A stretch of 64,000 nucleotides of DNA, taken from assembly GCA_951406725.2 (NCBI GenBank), contig OX597826.1, positions 61,442,001-61,506,000 on the forward strand, read 5' to 3'. Source of the stretch: Octopus vulgaris. Lineage: Eukaryota. The notes beneath the pieces were generated by a model. It had not been told where the DNA came from. It was given only the letters and a program-made list of their open reading frames with translations, and searched no databases. Positions 2,880-63,123 of this stretch are shown here, piece after piece (position 1 is the stretch's first letter; the number at the start of each line of letters is the position of its first letter). A program made the position numbers and the translations under genes.

Positions 2880-3021
2880 CTGCACATGAAATCCATTTGT
2901 CCTATTGGCGAGAGTTTATGCAAGGTGAGATTCGGATTTAATTTCGACAGACAATTCCGATATTCATGGAGAGCATTCCCCATACAACCATTGATCGATG
3001 GTATAAGTGGAGAAATAGTAA
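2880..3021 (-). CDS. Orphan exon-2 paralog (copy A) of the Cys-rich secreted/GPI protein family
   Basis: ttcag acceptor and gtaagt donor, 142 nt, phase 1 to 2. Encodes TISPLIPSINGCMGNALHEYRNCLSKLNPNLTLHKLSPIGQMDFMC. Homologous to 22881-23028, and flanking intron is homologous too. Confidence 0.75.
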
Positions 3022-3799
3022 CTGAAATGTATAATGAGTAAATAATTATTTAAGAAATTAGTTGTAAGTATTTATGCGTTTAGTTATGTAATGTGTGTCT
3101 ATTTTGAGTCTGTTTGTGCATGAGTATGTGTGGCCAACGATTCGCTCTATTACTTTTAACATCTTAGCATTTACAGAACACTGTAGCATTACAATTGTGT
3201 GGTAATATTTGCAATAACATGGGTTTAGGTTCGATTCTATTGTGCACCACATTGAATCTATTTCAGTTGATCAATAAGTTTTGGTTATAGATTTTTTAAT
3301 CGAAAAGCAAAAACAATCTACTATCAGGAATTGTACACAGAAGCACGTATCCACCTCCACACATTTATACACTAGAGAAAATAAGCAAATTAAAAATAGG
3401 ATATTTAATTGTTATCTGGAGTTTTGTAGACTGCGGTTATGTCATGCAACTTTGTCGTAAAGACGAGGAGTAGGGTTCTCAATGATTGTGCCAATTAACT
3501 CATTAGTGCTGTACTGTGAATTCGGCCTACAAGGTAGTCAGGAGGAATGCCGACATTCTCAGTCTGTCAACCAGTCAAGAGAACAAGGATGGCTCAAAAT
3601 TCAACTGATCAGAATACCTGACGAGATGGCTTTGTTATGTACTTCAGATTATGTAATACATTTAACAACAAATAACTAGCAATACAAAGCTATAAAGTGA
3701 AACAAGTGTAGTATGTTTCCTACAAAATCTACACACACATATACATACACATCTATCTATCTGGCAGAGTGTAGATATATGTTTATTTATATGATAGCA

Positions 3800-4140
3800 G
3801 GTACAAATTGCATTCCATAAAATTTCGGACATTTTCAGGAGAGGCATTTATTAATTCCAAAGAAGTAGAAAACTCTAAACCCCTTCAATATAAGATCCTC
3901 TGACTTCAATGCACATATAATTCTCCAGTAACTTCGTGAAGGCTCCATGGAATTCCTCTAATGTTAGGGTATCGAGGACTCTTGTCACAGTCTTCTTCAC
4001 TTTCGAAATGATTGCCCTTGAGCTCTTCGTTCAGCAAGATCTAGAGTGCAAGGAGAGTGAGGGACAGTTTTGATGCCAATCTAGTTAATCAGAATGCTCA
4101 TCAGTGAGCAGCACAACATAGCAAACATAGGGGACAAACT
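3800..4140 (-). mobile_element. Degraded mariner 3' remnant
   Basis: Similar to the remnant at 57045-57400; no open frame. Confidence 0.4.
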
Positions 4141-4201
4141 TTGGTTTCTGATTTAGGCATCTCGTGGAGATAGAGTTAATCGATACGTAAGTCACCGAGT
4201 T

Positions 4202-4412
4202 TCATTTTGTAGCTAATCGCAAAAACGTATGATTCGAAACAGCAAGGGAAATGAAGGAGATATATGGAAGTGATTTTATACCAGATGAAGAAATACTGTT
4301 GATTGATCTGCATGTGTGAGACATTATATTATAGCCGTAGTTTTGCATTATTTTAGTAAACTTTTCTGGACACCTAAAGTCGGCCAGTTTTTCAATTCCC
4401 TCTGCCAAAAGT
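4202..4412 (-). CDS. Gene B exon 5 (terminal coding exon)
   Basis: ttttcag acceptor, phase 2 matches exon 4. Encodes (P)LLAEGIEKLADFRCPEKFTKIMQNYGYNIMSHTCRSINSISSSGIKSLPYISFISLAVSNHTFLRLATK*. Paralog of 62922-63123. Confidence 0.85.
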
Positions 4413-5791: not shown

Positions 5792-5945
5792 GGACAATAT
5801 TTCCTGTTGTATTCTTCTCTTGTAATTATATTTTGTGCCTGCTGCATAAATAAGTTAGTCCCTTTCTCGAGGAGCTGCTGAAATCCCGATGATGTATTTG
5901 TTACTCTAGTATTTTGTATTAAACACGGCATGCCATCAAGTATAT
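5792..5945 (-). CDS. Gene B exon 4
   Basis: tttcag acceptor and gtatgt donor, 154 nt, phase 1 to 2. Encodes (D)ILDGMPCLIQNTRVTNTSSGFQQLLEKGTNLFMQQAQNIITREEYNRKYC(P). Confidence 0.85.
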
Positions 5946-16005: not shown

Positions 16006-16018
16006 TCCGACGATCCGA

Positions 16019-16683
16019 ATCTCCGACATGTCATGTAATGTTATGGATTGTCCCTACCCCTCTGGCGAATCTCTGAAATATCATGTAATGCTATGGATTG
16101 GGTCTGCTCCTCTGGTGAATCCGTGACATGTCATGTAATGTTATGGAAGAACCCTGTCCCTCTGGCGAATACCCGACATGTCATGTAATGTTATGGGTTG
16201 GGTCTGCCCCTCTGGCGAATCTGTGAGATGCCATGTCATGTTATGGATTGACCCTGTCCCTCTGGCGAAGCTCCGACATGTCATGTAATGTTATGGATAA
16301 GGTCAGCCCCTCAGCGAATCCGTGATATATCATGCAATGTTATGGATTGGCCCTACCCCTCTGGCGAATCTCCGACATGTCATGTAATGCTATCGATTGG
16401 GTCTGCCCCTCTGGCGAATCCGTGACATGTCATGTAAAGTTATGGATTGACTCTACCCCTCTGGCCAATCTCTGAAATGTCATGTAATGTTATTGGTTGG
16501 GTCTGCCCCTCTGGCGAATCCATGCCATGTCATGTAATGTTATGGATTAGTCCTGCCCCTCTGGCGAATCTCCGACATGTCATGTAATGTCATGGATTGA
16601 GTCTGCCTTTCTGGCGAATCCCTGACATGTCTTGTAATGTTATTGATTGGCCCTGCCCTGGCAAATCCCCCCGACATGTAATG
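16019..16683. repeat. 50-bp tandem minisatellite, ~13 units, alternating A/B variants (100-bp dimer)
   Basis: ATCTCCGACATGTCATGTAATGTTATGGATTG..CCCTCTGGCGA at a 50-nt period; units alternate CCCT(A/G) and GGTCTG. Confidence 0.92.
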
Positions 16684-17610
16684 TCTTTTTGGCATTGAAC
16701 TTTGTGGAATTTCTGCCCACTTTTCATGCAACAATCGAAAGAATTCACCTGGCTCTATCTCGTATTCTCCAAAGATTTTCAATTCGGTTCATGTCTGGAG
16801 ATTTTCTCGACCAAGGAAGCTTTTTCATCCTATTTTCCGTTAGCCGTTGTTGATTCCTTTTCGCTGTGGAAGATGGTGCCCCATCTTCCATGAATAAAAA
16901 CTCATTTTTCGTTATGTTATTATGAGAATACATCGGAAGTAGTCCTTGCTTAAGTATTTCGATGTATTTTTCAGAAGTTATGGTTCCAATACATTCAATC
17001 AGCTCAGAACGACCATTGCTGGTGACAACTCTCCATACCGTTACAGAGATACCACCATGTTTCTCAGTTGGTTGGAGTCGTTTCAAATCAAATTCTTGAT
17101 TTAGAAGCCTCTAGACCCAACCACGTCCACTGTCTGAAAATAATGCAAATTCATCTGAGAAAACCACTCTATCCCAAAATGAACTGGATTTTTCTGGCAC
17201 ATCCTCATTTCTTTCTTTTCATGATATTAATTGGTTGAAGGAGAGGTTTTCTTCAAGCTTATGCAAATATATAACATACGTTCTTGGACTAACTTCTAGC
17301 TGTTTTGTAATATCAGAAGCCTTTGAACGGGGGTTCGTTTTCCACAATTCTCTTCAAACAGTGAAGCTTCCTTTCCAAGGGCCCAGGTCAGCCGGGACGA
17401 GAATCTGTTGATTCTTTTCCTTGGCTTTTGAATTGCACTATAATTCTATTTACAGTAGCAAGAGGAATTTGAAGATTTTCGGCAGTTTTTCGTTAGTAAA
17501 AACCTGTCTCAGATTGCCCAACAATACAACCTCTTTGGAAATCTGACAGTTCTGCTGAACTTTTTGTAAATGGCATGGTTACTCTTTGAAAATGTTTAAT
17601 ATGATGGCAC
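16684..17610 (-). mobile_element. Second Tc1-like transposase pseudogene
   Basis: PTEKHGGISVTVW, FMEDGAPSS, WSRKSPDMNRIENLW; frameshifted. Confidence 0.8.
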
Positions 17611-21530: not shown

Positions 21531-22494
21531 GATGACTAAAGACAAAATGAGAAGATAAAAATGGGACACATATACAAACAGTATAATACATAAACCCATA
21601 TACTCACACACGACACACATACACATACTAAAGACAGAATGAGAAAGAAAAAATAAGTAAAAGACACAAGTGCAAACAGTGTAGTAATCAAATCCATATA
21701 GACGCACACAAAACATAGACAGACGCGCGCGCACAAACACACAATAATGCGTAGATAGGGATACATGCCACAGTAAGACAAAACAGAACAAGAGAAGACA
21801 CGTGAGATAGAGTCGTTGAAGAGGCCAAGGGATGGGTGACGAAAGACCTTTGACAAAGAAAAATAATGATAATAAAATAAAGACCAAATATATAGTGCGT
21901 GTGTTTAATTAACAAACGATAATCACCCCCAAGTATAACAATATAATACAATATAATATATTACCATATGATATGATATAATCAATATCTATAAAGCTGA
22001 AATGTGAAAATGTTGTTTGATTTCCTGGTTATTTGTCTCATTTTGGGATGGGAACAGTTTAAGAGGTAGATGGGGTCGGATTGGCGCCAAAATTGACATA
22101 GGGGTAAAATGGGATAGGCAATGGTGTGAGCAGGATTGCAAGTCGCTCGAGGCTACCGTTTGGTTGCCATGGTGAGGAATATGGGAAAAATTGAGTTTTA
22201 TGGGATAGACAGGTTGCGCTGTTTGAATAATGGTGGCTTTTCGTGTTGCTACAGGGGCTAGAGGCGGTTATCTTTAATGTAATCTATAAAATGAAGAAGG
22301 CGAATGTTGATACAAATTGGATTTTTACGTATCCATTACATAAACCTTCCTCATTTAAGCATTTCATTACGTAAACATTTCGAAATGAATCTTTGATCAG
22401 AAACAATACAAGTAGTATTCAACATTTCTTTTGTTTCAGGTAATTGTTTCTGATTTAAACAAATTTTAAAATTTTGTTTGTTAACATGTTTGTT

Positions 22495-22700
22495 AACATG
22501 GCAGAACTATAACCACGCCGGATAGAAGGTTTAGCAGTATTTCTTCCGACTTATCCTTCTGAGTTCAAATTCCGCTAGAGTAGAATTTGCCTTTCGTTCT
22601 CTCCAGGTCGAAAAAATAAATACTAGTTGAACTCTACGATCGATGTAAGCAACTTCTCTCCTTCCCGGAAATTGCTGGCATCGTGCTAAAATTTGAAACA
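22495..22700 (+). mobile_element. Degraded SINE (same family as 57676)
   Basis: GGCAGAA...TTAGCAGTATTTC...TTCTGAGTTCAAATTCCGC. Confidence 0.65.
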
Positions 22701-22880
22701 AATATATTGTTTTGCATGATTATCATTAAGAAGAAAACAAATGTCAGACGTTTTAGTATTCTAGCTATCCTCATATTAATCTTATTTCATTGTGTAACTT
22801 ACTCTGCTTGACTTCTGGCTGAATTATAAAGCAATGAACAATTAATTGAATAATGAGTATTTAATAAAATGTCAAATTAC

Positions 22881-23028
22881 TTGCACATCAAATCCATCTG
22901 ACTTTTTATCGCTTCTGAAGTCATTTCTATTGAGACTGGGGCACTTAATTTCGCTGTACAATTCTGAAATTCACTTAAAGCTGTTTGCATACAACCATTG
23001 CTCAATGTTATCCACAGAAAAATAGTAA
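22881..23028 (-). CDS. Gene B exon 2 (end of signal peptide + first Cys segment)
   Basis: tttcag acceptor and gtaatt donor, 148 nt, phase 1 to 2. Encodes (V)TIFLWITLSNGCMQTALSEFQNCTAKLSAPVSIEMTSEAIKSQMDLMC. Confidence 0.87.
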
Positions 23029-23690
23029 CTGAAATATAGAATGAATAAGAAGTTATTTAAAGAAATAGTTATAAATATTTATGCTTTTAATTATGTAATG
23101 TGTGTCTGTTTTGTTTTGAGTGAGCTTATGCGTGTGTATACTTGGCCAACGATTTTTTAATTGTGTTTTCAAAGTTTTACGCAACATTGCAATATTATAC
23201 AGTATATGTGTGGTAATATTTGCAATAACGTGGGTTTAAGTTGGATACCATTGCGCAGCACCACGTTGAATAAATATCTTCTATTAGACCACCAAGTTCT
23301 ATTCATTCTTGGTGAGACTGGGATATTTAATTTCGCTGTACAATTCTGAAATTCACTTAAAGCTGTTTGCATACAACCATTGCTCAATGTTATCCACAGA
23401 AAAATAGTAACTGAAATATAGAATGGATAAGAAGTTATTTAAAGAAATAGTTATAAATATTTATGCGTTTAATTATGTAATGTGTGTCTTTTTTGAGCGA
23501 GCCTATGCGTGTGTATACTTGGCCACGATTTACATTATTGAGTTTTCAAACTCTTAGCATTTACACAAGATTACAAAATTATACAGTATATGTGTGGTAA
23601 TATTTGCAATAACGTGGGTTTAAGTTGGATTCCATTGCGCAGCACCACATTGAATAAATGCCTTCTACTAGACCGCCAGGTTGATCAATA
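22932..23690. repeat. 382-bp tandem duplication carrying a partial copy of exon 2 (23313-23410) and its acceptor
   Basis: GAGACTGG..TTAATTTCGCTGTACAATTCTGAAATTCAC...AATAGTAACTGAAAT occurs twice, 382 nt apart. Confidence 0.9.
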
Positions 23691-24471
23691 AACTGTAACA
23701 AAAATGTTGAATTGGAAGGCAGAAACAATCTGTAATCAGGAATTGTACACAGAAATATGTACCCACCTCCATACATTTATTTACTTGAACGAACAAGCAA
23801 TATAAAAATAAGAAAAGTTATCTGGGGTTCTGTACATTGCAGTTCTCTCGGGCAACTTTACTGTGGAAATGAATATTAGGTTTCCCAATGATTGTGCCAA
23901 TTAAATCAATAGTACTGTAATGGGAATTCGGCTTACAGGGTAGTAAGGAGGAATACCGGCTACATTCTCAGACTATCAACCAGTCAATAGAACCAGGATG
24001 TCTCAAAGTGCCTGATGAAATGGCTTGGTTATGTAATTGAGTTATGTTATACATCGAAGGACAAATAAATTGACATTCAATACAAACATGCGTTGCATAA
24101 TGTGAATAAAATCCACACACACATACATATATACATATCTATATCAAAGGTCCACAGATAAATACATGGAATTAAATAACTATATACATAAACAAAATAT
24201 AATAAATTATATTAAATTAAATTAATACAAAAAAAGAAAGAAATGAGAAAGTAAAGATAAAAACAAATTACTAAAATAAATAAAAGTAAGTTAAAAGAAC
24301 ATGATTAAACACGGGATGCTGATAATGTAAGTACCATACACATTCCCACACACACACTAATGATAAACACAGAGATATACGAATGCGCAAATAAAGACAC
24401 ATGCAACAGGAATACAAAATGGCAGAAAGTTAGGAAGGAGAGACACAAAAACGAAAGAAGAAAGCAAAGTA

Positions 24472-25443: not shown

Positions 25444-26731
25444 CAGATAATCCCATAAGTTCTGTCCGATTTTACCTTTTTTAAAACTGAATGAAATTTA
25501 ATAGTATTTTAGAATGTCTAATGCGATTGAAAATTATTTTTTATGCATTTGTGTACATTTAAACTAATTAAATATTATTTTACAGAATAATAGAACCAAA
25601 CTTTCTTTGATTAAAACCCTTTCTAGCATGGAAGTATCCAAAGAGCATTTGAGGCACATAATGCTTTACGAACCCCCAAAAGGAAACTCTGCAGCCGAAG
25701 CGATTCGAAACATACACTCAGTTTATGGGAAAGAATGCTTGAATGAAAGAACTTGCAGAAGATGGTTTGCAAAATTCAGAAGTGGAGATTTCAGCCTTGA
25801 AGATGAAGATCGAACAGGACGTCCAGTTGAGTTTGATGATAATCTCCTTGAGGCATTACTTGAAAAAAATCCTGCATTATCAGTTGAAGAATTGACAATA
25901 AAGCTTAGCTCAAACCATACAACTGTTCATCATCATCTTCAACAACTTGGAAAGGTTCCTAAACTTGGAAAATGGGTACCTAATGAATTGTCCGAAAGCA
26001 ACCGCAAATACCGAGTTGAGATCTGCTCTTCTCTCCGTTCTCGCGAACTCATTTCACCCTTTTTGGATAGACCTGTGACTAGTGACGAAAAATGGATCTT
26101 CTATCGAAATGTTAAACGTCGTAAACAGTGGCTAGTTAAAAGGGAAAAGCTCCAGCACAACTGAGAAGGGAACTTCATGGGAAAAAGGTTCTTCTCTCTA
26201 TCTGGTGGGATTGCAAAGGAGTAATTCACTTTGAATTGTTACCACCTAATGCAACAATCAATGCTCAAGTCTACTGTCATCAATTAGAGCGTTTGAACCA
26301 AGCTTTGAAGAAAAAAAGACTCGCTTTAGTGAATCGAAAAGGAGTGATGTTTCATCAGGACATTGCGCGACCCAACACTGCAAAGATCACATCACAGAAG
26401 ATCGAAGAGCTTGGTTGGGAAAAAATTCCTCATCCACCTTATTCTCTCCGACCTTGCTCCTTCAGACTACCATTTGTGTCGTAGTTTACAGAATCATTTG
26501 GGGGACATAACTTTCGCAAGCCAGGAGGAGGTCGAAACTGACATTTCACAGTTCTTCGCTTCGATGCCAAAAGAGTTTTACATTGATGGGATTAAAAAGC
26601 TTGTAAATAGATGGAAGGAAGTCATAGATAATCAGGGAAAGTACATTGATGGTTAAATTTCAATTAAATATAACATCTGATCACTTGTTTTCGCTATTCA
26701 AAATTCGGACAGAACTTATGGGATGACCTGA
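25443..26731 (+). mobile_element. Full-length mariner (DD34D), 1289 bp, frameshifted transposase
   Basis: TIRs TCAGATAATCCCATAAGTTCTGTCCGA / TCGGACAGAACTTATGGGATGACCTGA with TA flanks. WVPNEL, TSDEKW, FHQD, DLAPSDY motifs across ORFs 25607-26656. Confidence 0.95.
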
Positions 26732-33617: not shown

Positions 33618-33651
33618 CAACAAATATGTATTGAGGCAAAACTCTGTTCAT
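33618..33651 (-). CDS. Gene B exon 1 (start codon; signal peptide N-terminus)
   Basis: aaaATG AAC AGA GTT TTG CCT CAA TAC ATA TTT GTT G|gtaaga. Phase 1 joins exon 2 to give MNRVLPQYIFVVTIFLWITLSNG-C. Total CDS 693 nt, 230 aa. Confidence 0.75.
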
Positions 33652-34891: not shown

Positions 34892-37392
34892 ATATTGTTA
34901 TATTTCGAAATGGTCATTTTGCTAGTTTAGCCTATAAAAACACACGCACTATATATTTGGTGTTATTTTGCTTCAGTGTTATTTATTTTTTACATTAATC
35001 TTAATCTTATTTCGGCCAGAGTTCTTTCGTCACACTCCTGTGACCGCATTAGTGGTCTTTTGTTTTCTTCTTTCTTATTTGTGTCTCTCTTTACCAACCG
35101 TCAGCCATTTTGTATTTCTATTGTATATCTTCATTTGCGCATGCCTATATCTCTATGTGCGTCTATGTTTATTTAGTGTGTGTGGGGGATGCCTGTAATA
35201 TTTGTATCTTCTGTTTATATACGTTCATGTAATTTGTTTTTGTTGCTTTTGTTTATTCTTATTTTGTTCATGTGTTTACATCCACTAATTATTATCATTA
35301 CGTATGCTTGTATGTATGTATAACGACAATACTAGTAATATTAATAATAATAGTAAATAAAAAAAATCTTTTAAATTAAACAAAAAAAAAACTTATATAG
35401 TTATTTATTTCTATTTGTTTATTTATCTGTGTATTTTATTTATTATGTTTTCGGTTTTGTTTATATTGTAACCAGTTTATGGGGATCCTCTACCGTCATA
35501 TGTTGTGGTGTGTGCTAGTGTTCCATTCCAGTTTCCTATTCAGGCTAGGTTTATCTTCTATTATGTGTATAGCTTCTGTAATTTGTCTGATTGTTGCATC
35601 TGTTCTATGTGCGGACAATATTTTAATTTCTATGTTGTTGATTGTTCCCCCGTATTCCTGTTCGGCGTGTTGGTACAGAATCGATGAGCTTTTACTTTCC
35701 TTAAGTCCTCTCCAATGAACATTTACCCGCTCTCCTATGCTTCTTGCCGTTTCCCCTACGTATGTCGTTGTCTTGTTACTGCATCGTCCCTCTATACATC
35801 TTATACTATAGATTACATTTCTGGCTTTACAGTAAGTTTGTGGGCTAAATCTACATACAGTACAGTACTTATCTGTACAGGGGGTTCTACTAAAAGGGTA
35901 GGTTCTACCGATTATAGATTTGATAGGGTTGCCTGGCTTTTCAACAACCTTAATCCTTAGCTTAAGTTTGTCTAGGGTCCTTCTAAAGCGGTACGCCAGT
36001 TCACCTCCAGGAGTGGTGTCAACGAACATGACACTCTGGTATTTATGGCTATCATACCAAGAGTTGGCCTTCCCTATTTTTTTTGTCCTTTCTATAGTGT
36101 TCCATGACTTGTTCCTATAGAGTGGGCAAATCCCATTCCTATCATTACATAATATATTATCAAATTTCTTCATGGCTCCTTTGTATACTCTGATCCTTTC
36201 TTTATGGCTGTAACCTGAGAACTGCATGCGGTGAATGAAATATTGTATTTGTCTCTTTAACTCTGTAGGCTTGCACATGCGTGATACATTTCTCATTATT
36301 CTGACGAGGTCTGCCATCAAAATATTGAATTTGGCATTGTCTGCAACCCTATCAAATCTATAATCGGTAGAACCTACCCTTTTAGTAGAACCCCCTGTAC
36401 AGATAAGTACTGTACTGTATGTAGATTTAGCCCACAAACTTACTGTAAAGCCAGAAATGTAGTCTATAGTATAAGATGTATAGAGGGACGATGCAGTAAC
36501 AAGACAACGACATACGTAGGGGAAACGGCAAGAAGCATAGGAAAGCGGGTAAATGTTCATTGGAGAGGACTTAAGGAAGGTAAAAGCTCATCGATTCTGT
36601 ACCAACACGCCGAACAGGAATACGGGGGCTCAATCAACAACATAGAAATTAAAATATTGTCCGCACATAGAACAGATGCAACAATCAGACAAATTACAGA
36701 AGCTATACACATAATAGAAGATAAATCTAGCCTGAATAGGAAACTGGAATGGAACACTAGCACACACCACAACATATGACGGTAGAGGATTCCCATAAAC
36801 TGGTTACAATATAAACAAAACCGAAAACATAATAAATAAAATTCACAGATAAATAAGCAAGTAGAAATAAATAACTATATAAGTTTTTTTTTGTTTAATT
36901 TAAAAGATTTTTTTATTTACTAGTATTATTATTATTATAACTAGTATTGTTGTTATACATACATACATACAGGCATACGTAATGATAATAATAATAAGTG
37001 GATGTAAAAACATGAACAAAATAAGTATAAACAAAAACAACAACAAAAACAAATTACATGAACGTATATAAACAGAAGATACAAATATTACAGGCATCCC
37101 CCACACACTAAATAAACATAGACGCACATAGAGATATAAGCATGCGCAAATAAAGACATACAATAAAAATACAAAATGGCTGACGGTTAGTAAAGAGAGA
37201 CACAAATAAGAAAGAAGAAAACAAAAGATCACTAATGCGGTCACAGGAGTGTGACGAAAGAACTCTGGCCGAAATAAGATTAAGATTAATGTAAAAAATA
37301 AATAACACTGAAGCAAAATAACACCAAATATTTTGTGCGTGTGTTTTTATTGGCTAAACTGGCAAAATGACCATTCCGAAATATAACAATAT
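34892..37392. mobile_element. Penelope-like insertion with ~1.04-kb inverted arms (34892-35932 / 36343-37392)
   Basis: Arms are reverse complements around a 410-bp spacer. The minus-strand ORF C-terminus has GIY-YIG (NVIYSIRC..TYVGETARSIGERVNVH..EAIHI). Degenerate hammerhead in each arm. Confidence 0.92.
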
Positions 37393-44690: not shown

Positions 44691-45191
44691 CGATGGAATA
44701 ATGTATTCTATGCACTCGCAAACGTATCTCTACATTTCATTAACAATATATATATGATATATATGATAGATCGTTAGCTACTACACACTTCTTTTCTCCC
44801 CTTTTTTCTCTCCTTCCTTTTATTTTTTCTGTGTACCTTTCTGTAGAAGAGCGTAGGCTCGAAACGTAAAATACTTTTTCTATTCCTGAGCGCTATACTA
44901 ATACATCTGTTTGTTTGTACACCACCTGCCTTCCTCTTTTGTTTATTTTCGTAAACTTTCCCTTTATATATATATATATATATATTTAACAATTCGTGAT
45001 GTGTTCAGAATCAGTTCTGCTGAGGATCATAAGACGTAAGTTAAATGTGAAATCACGGTGATACAGAACTAAATTCATTTTTTAAATATCTTGCTTTGAA
45101 GAACTGCATTTAGGTATGATTAATGTAATTTTGGTAGTAATGACTTTGTCCCCCTTAGTGTGAGGCATTTATGTGTATTAATGTCCTCTAT

Positions 45192-45223
<32 letters not shown>

Positions 45224-46122
45224 CGTTGCAGAAGGTCATGAGGAGATAAATTTACGCGGCAGGACGTCAACCTGTAATTATGCTAAACATTCAACCACAT
45301 CTCACAGTATCATATTCTATTGGACGCATCTATTGTACACAAAAGCACACACACACAAATGCACAAACACACGTACTCGCGCCCACAATAACCTGATTTT
45401 ATTTCTGTATACGCTAGCAACAGCAGACCAAACAAGATCGAAAAAAAAAAAAAAAAATAGAAATAGAAAAGCAACAAGAACCATAAAGATTTCATCTTTT
45501 TTTTTTAATATTTTGTCTTTCAGAATAGTAAATAAGAAATAGTGTAGTTCTATATTTTAGAGATGAAGAATTATGTACATTATTCACATTCGACGGAAAT
45601 TTGTCCTCATCTTGTTTCGATGGAATAATGTAATCTATGCACTCGCAAACGTATCTCTACATTTCATTAACAATATATATATGATATATATGATAGATCG
45701 TTAGCTACTACACACTTCTTTTCTCCCCTTTTTTCTCTCCTTGTTTCTCTCCTTGTTTTTTTTCTGTGTACCTTTCTGTAGAAGAGCGTAGGCTCGAAAC
45801 GTAAAATACTTTTTCTATTTCTGACCGCTATACTAATACATCCTTTTGTTTGTACACCACCTGCCTTCCTCTTTTGTTTATTTTCGTAAACTTTCCCTTT
45901 ATATATATATATATATTTAACAATTCATGATGTGTTCAGAATCAGTTCTGCTGAGGATCATAAGACGTAAGTTAAATGTGAAATCACGGTGATACAGAAC
46001 TAAATTCATTTTTTAAATATCTTGCTTTGAAGAACTGCATTTAGGTATGATTAATGTAATTTTGGTAGTAATGACTTTGTCCCCCTTAGTGTGAGGCATT
46101 TATGTGTATTAATGCCCTCTAT

Positions 46123-46165
<43 letters not shown>

Positions 46166-47170
46166 GTTGCAAAAGGTCATGAGGAGATAAATTTACGCGG
46201 CAGGACGTCAACCTGTAATTATGCTAAACATTCAACCACACCTCACAGTATCTTATTCTATTGGACGCATCTATTGTACACAAAAGCACACACAAATGCA
46301 CAAACACACGTACTCGCGCCCACAATAACCTGATTTTATTTCTGTATACGCTAGCAACAGCAGACCAAACAAGATCAAAAAAAAGAAAAGAAATAGAAAA
46401 GCAACAAGAACCATAAAGATTACATCTTTTTTTTTAATATTTTGTCTTTCAGAATAGTAAATAAGAAATAGTGTAGTTCTATATTTAAGAGATGAAGAAT
46501 TATGTACATTATTCACATTCGACGGAAATTTGTCCTCATCTTGTTTCGATGGAATAATGTAATCTATGCACTCGCAAACGTATCTCTACATTTCATTAAC
46601 AATATATATATGATATATATGATAGATCGTTAGCTACTACACACTTCTTTTCTCCCCTTTTTTCTCTCCTTGTTTCTCTCCTTGTTTTTTTTTTCTGTGT
46701 ACCTTTCTGTAGAAGAGCGTAGGCTCGAAACGTAAAATACTTTTTCTATTCCTGAGCGCTATACAAATACATCTGTTTGTTTGTACACCACCTGCCTTCT
46801 TCATTTGTTTATTTTCGTAAACTTTCCCTTTATATATATATATACAGAAATAAAATCAGGTTATTGTGGGCGCGAGTACGTGTGTTTGTGCATTTGTGTG
46901 TGTACACAAAAGCACACACACACAAATGCACAAACACACGTACTCGCGCCCACAATAACCTGATTTAATTCTGTATACGCTAGCAACAACAGACCAAAGG
47001 AGACCGAAAAAAAAAAGAAATAGAAAAGCAGCAAGAACCATAAAGATATCATTTTTTTTTTAGTATTTTGTCTTTCAGAATAGTGAATAAGAAATAGTGT
47101 AGTTCTATATTTAAGATGAAGAATTATGTACATTATTTACATTCGACGGAAAATTGTCCTCATCTTGTTT
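44691..47170. repeat. ~928-bp tandem triplication; third unit rearranged with an internal inversion
   Basis: CGATGGAATAATGTA(T/A)TCTATGCACTCGC at 44691, 45618 and 46547; each unit has a hammerhead-variant motif. Confidence 0.92.
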
Positions 47171-50103: not shown

Positions 50104-50105
50104 TA

Positions 50106-52371
<2,266 letters not shown>

Positions 52372-59801: not shown

Positions 59802-61175
<1,374 letters not shown>

Positions 61176-61196
61176 TATGATATAATATATATATAT

Positions 61197-61260
<64 letters not shown>

Positions 61261-61799
61261 GACATAGATAGATTGAAACGTGCATGCACACATTTGTTTA
61301 AGTATGCACTTCCAGAAAAAGCTTTCGTCAATACTATACACTTGTGGTAAGTGAACTCATCCCGGATAAAAAATATCAAGTGCTTTAGGATAATTTGTGG
61401 TAGCTTTTATGCCATGATTCACTGTTTTACCAGTCATTTTAACGCTGTGCAAAGTGAAGCGACCAACCTGTCAAAGTGGCATTTATTGCTCTTTTCACCT
61501 CTTGCAAATCGTCATATACACCATTAGCTTTTGGTTGAATGAACATCGTAGTTGTCATATTCTCACAATAAACATTGCAATAGGGTTTAAATTTTTTGCC
61601 TTTGTCAGACCTTTGTATAGAACAACAATTTTAAGTTAAAATAGTATTGCGTCTTCTTTCTTTTTCATTACTACATGATGTCAAAAAGGCTGAAGGTATG
61701 CCATGCGATAAGAAGTACTGTAATTTAGTAGCTAGATCCGAGTCAGTTAAGTTGTTGCGGCCACAAACAACGTGGTCTGGTAGTTGAAAACAATTACAT

Positions 61800-62921: not shown

Positions 62922-63123
62922 TTAGCTAACAATAAGAAGTAAGATGAGAAACACCAAGGAAAGGAAGGAGATATTTGGAAGTGGTTTTATACCAGATGAA
63001 TCAATTTTGTTGATTGATCTACATGTGTCAGACATCATATCATAGCCGTATTCTTGAAGTACTTTAGTAAACTCTTTGGAGCACTTAAAGTCGGCCAGCT
63101 TTTCAATTCCCTCTTTCAAAAGT
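62922..63123 (-). CDS. Terminal exon of upstream paralog (gene C) with GPI-anchor-type C-terminus
   Basis: poly-T + gcag acceptor, phase 2. Encodes LLKEGIEKLADFKCSKEFTKVLQEYGYDMMSDTCRSINKIDSSGIKPLPNISFLSLVFLILLLIVS*. Intron 63140-63665 is homologous to 4420-4990. Confidence 0.87.

Follow-up and report, generated by a model that had tools for sequence, protein, structure and literature searches.

Three tandem ten-cysteine units in Octopus vulgaris are probably spliced into one 622-residue frame through a donor in the ancestral last exon

The window analysed here is a 64-kb stretch of Octopus vulgaris DNA (contig OX597826.1, positions 61,442,001 to 61,506,000), which we searched together with 100 kb per side, 264 kb altogether. 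The search returned a cluster of five units, arranged D, C, B, A, Z. Two of them, C and D, are genes of one unit each whose tails are intact, while B, A and Z form one gene, a chain of 13 exons (B1–B5, A2–A5 and Z2–Z5) with a computed length of 1,869 nt and 622 aa and no internal stop. Each of the three units has 10 Cys, and the chain preserves the frame and the full set of 30, so that the computed product has one signal peptide, three 10-Cys units, one predicted GPI tail and Ser/Thr/Pro-rich linkers. The features of this gene, with one control from paralog C, are as follows.

33618–33651, minus strand: unit B exon 1, coding part (MNRVLPQYIFV, first half of the gene's only signal peptide), ending in phase 1; same as the P0003 N-terminus
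22881–23028, minus strand: unit B exon 2, with the intact signal half TIFLWITLSNG and the first Cys segment
12478–12623, minus strand: unit B exon 3
5792–5945, minus strand: unit B exon 4; in runs X1, X2 and X12 the loose end found behind 4412 is the 3′ end of this exon
4282–4412, minus strand: unit B exon 5, the 131-nt part retained in the mRNA; contig pieces stop at 4282 in 4/4 runs
4276–4281, minus strand: latent phase-1 donor GTATAA within the ancestral last exon, in the Gly codon of S-S-G
4202–4281, minus strand: vestigial GPI-type tail of unit B, frameshifted, with TGA at 4204–4202, now intronic
3022–4281, minus strand: new 1,260-nt intron made up of the old tail with a short 3′ flank, a repeat remnant and the 3′ part of an intron-1 copy
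3847–4035, minus strand: dispersed repeat remnant in the B–A intron
3022–3756, minus strand: intron-1 homology contributing the acceptor, 72% identical to 23410–24142
2880–3021, minus strand: unit A exon 2, its former signal half now the linker TISPLIPSING
Left of the window, G000:C13:61435924 down to 61415411: A exons 3–5 and Z exons 2–5
62922–63123, minus strand: last exon of paralog C, a single-unit gene serving as control; its tail is intact and it too has the latent donor, at 62993

The exon at 3021–2880 (142 nt, minus strand, CAG acceptor, GTAAGT donor) had been described in the initial annotation as a further copy of exon 2 lying soon after the gene B stop with no exon 1 in between, and both statements hold: it begins 1,181 nt beyond the TGA. 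At the other junction, Z exon 2 lies 1.9 kb past the last exon of unit A (G000:C13:61428271-61428141, donor TTG|GTAAAA), again without an exon 1. Neither gap contains a trace of exon 1, either in a peptide scan at 6/10 identity or in a DNA comparison, on the same strand, with the exon-1 regions of B and C; the B–A gap gave one weak match to these regions, on the opposite strand (E 0.024 versus 6e-44 for the B-versus-C control). The annotation had also pointed to the left of the window as the place where exons 3–5 of copy A should end in an intact GPI signal. The exons are present there and carry no internal stops in frame, but the tail on A is frameshifted and the intact tail is found on Z. 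Two candidate readings were thereby rejected: copy A as a lone pseudo-exon, given the A and Z exons left of the window, and an intact tail on copy A, whose tail is degraded, with a one-base deletion just behind the donor.

The tail of gene B had likewise been called frameshifted, which we confirmed: an extra base is present near 4247 and, by alignment, a second one further on. Its best 15-residue hydropathy is 1.35, with three charged residues in the last 15, versus 3.25 in C, 2.85 in Z and 2.71 in D, where the intact tails have no charged residue in the last 15. The frameshift in the A tail lies at a different place from that in B. By sequence pattern and hydropathy, the chain as a whole combines an N-terminal signal peptide with C-terminal small residues, a spacer and an uncharged hydrophobic tail, and the three-unit protein is predicted to be GPI-anchored. 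At the other end of the repeated unit, exon 2 of A begins TISPLIPSING where B and C read TIFLWITLSNG, and its Cys segment, frame and both splice sites are intact, in accordance with the initial description. Erosion of the signal half is mild in Z, with a hydropathy of 0.48 versus 0.43 in single-unit D, a measure that does not by itself separate the two.

Exon 5 of B reads CTG|GTATAA at 4282, a phase-1 donor, and the acceptor at 3021 is also phase 1, so the two sites match in phase as proposed. The same latent donor had been noticed in paralog C; we found it there and in Z, and it is absent at that place in D. Judged from sequence, the latent donor is ancestral. Donor strength was assessed against the other donors of the gene. 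A public model of C, CAI9732000.1, joins the same latent donor at 62993 to an alternative last exon (61634–61776) that encodes no hydrophobic tail.

Four of the 24 listed public runs, drawn from four studies, were examined for the splice that the annotation predicted between 4282 and 3021. We presume these runs to be RNA, although none is recorded as such, and their data are assembled contigs that carry no strand, ends or levels, contig depth being a poor measure of the last. Contigs of all four contain the joint, which skips 1,260 nt between GT and AG. The short side of the joint measures 131 letters in X2, 120 in X6, 131 in X12 and 30 in X1; under a bridging rule of 31 letters three of the four runs pass and X1 falls one letter below. 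In X2, X6 and X12 the contig crosses the joint unbroken. One X1 contig runs from A2 to the Z tail, the 334 and 593 letters between its pieces being exactly the summed exon lengths, and the A5/Z2 joint is read across by a loose end in X12. No contig spanning exon 1 to the tail was seen in the four runs, and the 5′ link rests on gene models. Since the joint itself is present in run contigs, a chance phase match of 4282 and 3021 was rejected. The run contigs skip introns precisely. A retrocopy was rejected as well: the assembly gave four matches at the DNA level and 15 at the protein level, all within this cluster, and none of them is a processed copy.

These same data bear on whether B is instead mainly a gene of its own, producing a secreted protein with a broken tail, with the joined form as a minor read-through or an assembly chimera. 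GTATAA is far from the donor consensus, the main model of C does not use this donor, a contig crossing from one gene to the next is not proof of one transcript, and X1 has an unspliced contig (3924–4311) that covers the donor. The depth of that contig is, however, 5.2 versus 133–162 for the spliced X1 contigs, and it looks like background, since other intronic contigs are similarly low at 2–5. The unbroken passage of the joint in X2, X6 and X12, the retention of 30 Cys in frame, and a linker conserved in three species also speak against a separate B gene, which we regard as very improbable as the main form. A minor B-only transcript may exist beside the joined one, in keeping with the unspliced X1 contig and with AATAAA at 3852 and 3787 in the B–A intron.

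The joined form can also be followed through public gene models, all of them uncharacterised. The chain is identical to CAI9731999.1 (O. vulgaris) over residues 1–589, after which that model omits the tail. XP_029644460.1 (LOC115218675, O. sinensis) lacks the N-terminus but contains the tail as well as both joints, and XP_014771027.1 (LOC106869700, O. bimaculoides) has both joints and the linker VTMSPQIPSSNG. The predicted junction peptide SINSISSSVTISPLIPSINGCMG is present in CAI9731999.1 and XP_029644460.1, with the orthologous linker in O. bimaculoides. Because the O. bimaculoides linker shares the S-P-x-I-P change, this change predates the species split, and because the joints stand in models of all three Octopus species, the fusion is an old one, already annotated in each of them. 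None of the models reaches the complete 622 aa with signal and tail together. Between O. vulgaris and O. bimaculoides, orthologous units share 66–73% identity. A second O. bimaculoides isoform, XP_014771028.1 (P0002), has two units, with the B–A joint and no A–Z joint; its last exon is closest to Z5 (54/66 aligned positions versus 37/62 for A5), and the isoform is likely an A4-to-Z5 skip, to judge from this alignment.

Taken together, we hold with good confidence that splicing from a donor in the ancestral last exon joins B, A and Z in a single frame of 622 aa, with a predicted layout of one signal peptide, three helical 10-Cys domains and one GPI anchor, and that the joints likely go back to one junction that was later copied. 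The interpretation put forward in the initial annotation is thus supported, as far as a transcript joining B to the next copy is concerned, and neither of the outcomes that it had named as refuting was observed; A proved to be the middle one of three units, and the data do not imply that it was once a separate gene. A broader proposal, that the Gly codon in the small-residue patch before the GPI signal acts as a built-in phase-1 donor by which octopods stack one-, two- and three-unit surface proteins from one cluster through alternative splicing, is speculative and we consider it rather unlikely; in its favour are the modelled two-unit O. bimaculoides isoform, which has a tail, and the model of C that leaves its tail out by way of this donor. 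If it were true, the locus would show, with its fossils intact, how single-domain GPI proteins can in general become multi-domain ones.

To see how the joints may have arisen, we compared the two new introns, which share one order: the tail, a repeat in the same orientation, and a remnant of the 3′ part of intron 1. The content of the B–A gap was largely as first described. The intron-1 homology is there (3021–3756 versus 23410–24142, 72%) and the repeat is dispersed (40 of the 40 scored matches among 477 candidates), but the name mariner, which reflects a likeness of motifs, found no confirmation in Pfam, where a 72-aa decayed related copy of the repeat matched no transposase family. An overlapping piece of the same repeat family lies in the A–Z intron in the same orientation, and within the 264 kb the piece has one other copy at E<1e-5 and one more distant, partial one. 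The intron-1 remnants of A and Z are 66.5% identical to each other, and 72% and 69% identical, respectively, to intron 1 of B. Behind the donor, C and Z share 434 nt that include ATTAAA and AATAAA, which we infer to be poly(A) signals; in B and A the homology to this 3′ flank ends at 107–153 nt, before either hexamer.

These breakpoints fit a sequence of events in which a rearrangement would first have placed a block starting in intron 1 about 110–150 nt behind the donor of the upstream unit. Since such a block starts in intron 1 close behind the donor, the C/Z-type hexamers and the downstream exon 1 are both absent. Transcription would then have run on, and the pre-existing weak phase-1 donor would have met a phase-1 acceptor, so that stop and tail were spliced out. 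Unequal crossing-over likely copied a unit together with its junction, taking two units to three, and the tails and signal halves would have decayed afterwards under relaxed selection. Because the new introns share breakpoints and a repeat remnant, a junction made once and later copied with a unit appears likely from the sequence comparison. Two results speak against it: the intron-1 remnants of A and Z are no closer to each other than to intron 1 of B, and the tree described below does not separate the order of the units.

An alternative history begins with three complete neighbour genes, B, A and Z, fused one by one as two independent deletions took away first exons, promoters and poly(A) signals. 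The cluster does contain two complete paralogs of one unit, C and D, and the three units are about equally distant from one another (50–51% among B, A and Z), with B resembling C (60%) more than it resembles A or Z. Yet two independent deletions are unlikely to give matching flank ends, intron-1 remnants that resemble each other and one repeat family with a shared orientation, and we consider this history improbable. In a tree of 15 rows, from which P0009 and duplicate isoforms were left out, units group by position across species (A in 97/100), and the deep forks among A, Z and B/C are left unseparated. For the first junction, a deletion between two genes is indistinguishable in these data from a partial duplication within one gene; either may have occurred, with equal fit, and because the partial duplication fits equally, it does not follow that A was formerly a separate gene.

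A further possibility concerns the order of events: tail loss would have come before the fusion, which selection would then have favoured as a rescue of membrane anchoring. Unit Z does supply the fused protein with a tail. However, B and A carry different frameshifts, so if the junction was copied these frameshifts must post-date it and tail decay would follow fusion; we give the rescue almost no credence and retain the single, copied junction as the preferred reading.

Repeated-domain surface proteins are common, and the steps by which their domains were joined are usually erased. Here a single cluster of 150 kb, for which three species have orthologs, still preserves the former stop codons, the remains of the tails and signal halves, the breakpoints, and sister genes that are not fused, which makes the system tractable for following how a weak donor becomes constitutive and in which order sorting signals decay. 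A review describes tandem genomic duplication that activates a latent splice site as an established route of intron gain, imprecise where coding nucleotides are removed (PMC3443670), and another source reports that domain repeats commonly arise by internal duplication (PMC1553488). The octopus gene resembles the former route in that duplication would have activated a latent splice site and coding nucleotides are removed. It differs in that the donor lies in a terminal exon and the new intron takes with it a stop codon and a sorting signal, joining whole domains, and this at two junctions. The finding is implicit in public models and its mechanism is of a known kind, with no new mechanism or function shown; its value lies in an unusually complete fossil record at two junctions, and in a correction to the public models, all of which lack part of the protein.

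The fold of a single unit was modelled from a nine-row alignment and is all-helical, with a pLDDT of 67; a 600-aa single-sequence fold reached a pLDDT of 37 and was discarded as unusable. Foldseek returned no match at E≤0.001 for the single-unit model, the best VIA-align hit had Z 4.0 (rmsd 3.7, 105 aligned) with none at Z≥5, and the best E in a PDB sequence search was 0.065. On this model no structural relative can be named, which does not imply a new fold. Pfam gave no DUF19 or DUF1397 match at E≤1 in P0001–P0008 or P0010, and no family at its cut-off. The nearest clusters by language-model features in the Atlas were an unnamed arthropod cluster (0.92), a nematode cluster named DUF19 (0.91) and a DUF1397 cluster (0.90), with only three of the ten best matches agreeing on family, and UniRef names some family members DUF19. 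Members of DUF19 (PF01579, T20D4.11-like), DUF1397 (PF07165, 27 kDa haemolymph protein) and CPG4 (PF15481) are similar in size to the octopus unit; in the eight family proteins scanned, however, Pfam gave no match to any of the three at E≤1, and sequence relatives were found only in octopods. It resembles the DUF19/DUF1397 clusters, and its membership in them is not established by this sequence comparison.

A full HMMER scan gave seven matches, of which six are octopod family members, including one single-unit Argonauta protein, and the seventh (P0009, a fish HMG repeat protein) was judged spurious and dropped from the alignment and tree. P0010, the single-unit relative from Argonauta hians, has 10 Cys and a hydrophobic tail and is named after O. 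sinensis LOC115218302, a name that may point to a more distant paralog, one not among the matches of the genome search. A literature search for this octopus gene family and its RefSeq/LOC ids, with supplementary tables outside its reach, found no paper.

An architectural analogy is offered by Ly6/uPAR proteins, which one source describes as single-domain 10-Cys proteins, often GPI-anchored and encoded in gene clusters, with some members (uPAR, C4.4A, CD177) carrying repeated domains that are joined at phase-1 introns, the GPI signal lying in the last exon (PMC6600238). The octopus gene shares the single-to-multi-domain layout, with a predicted GPI tail, and the phase-1 introns. The units themselves differ: LU domains have a three-finger beta fold and two exons, whereas the octopus unit is predicted to be all-helical and has four exons, and with no Pfam LU match and a helical model it is not placed in Ly6/uPAR. 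As to role, we tentatively suggest that the three-unit protein perhaps binds surfaces as its single-unit paralogs would, in a multivalent form or with longer reach.

Several further repeats and partial copies lie in and near the window. The segment 22329–23834 contains a truncated second exon-2 copy of unit B at 23410, which has an identical acceptor but lacks a donor; within it, 22329–23298 is 91.7% identical to the exon-2 region of paralog C (99.3% over 23000–23298), which suggests, by sequence, conversion or insertion from C. On the plus strand, intron 1 of unit B contains at about 25640–26660 a decayed, near-full-length transposase, presumably mariner-like by its motifs, and intron 2 of unit A contains at 1–2400 an element that we take to be LINE-like from its YADD reverse-transcriptase motif. 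A 50-nt minisatellite occupies 16016–16684 and a tandem of about 927 nt at 95% occupies 44691–47170, while 34892–35932 and 37392–36343 form a 1.05-kb inverted pair (95.6%) and 50104–51493 and 59810–61176 a 1.39-kb direct pair (96.5%). Immediately upstream of exon 4 of paralog C lies a second exon-4-like segment (G000:C13:61509674-61509889).
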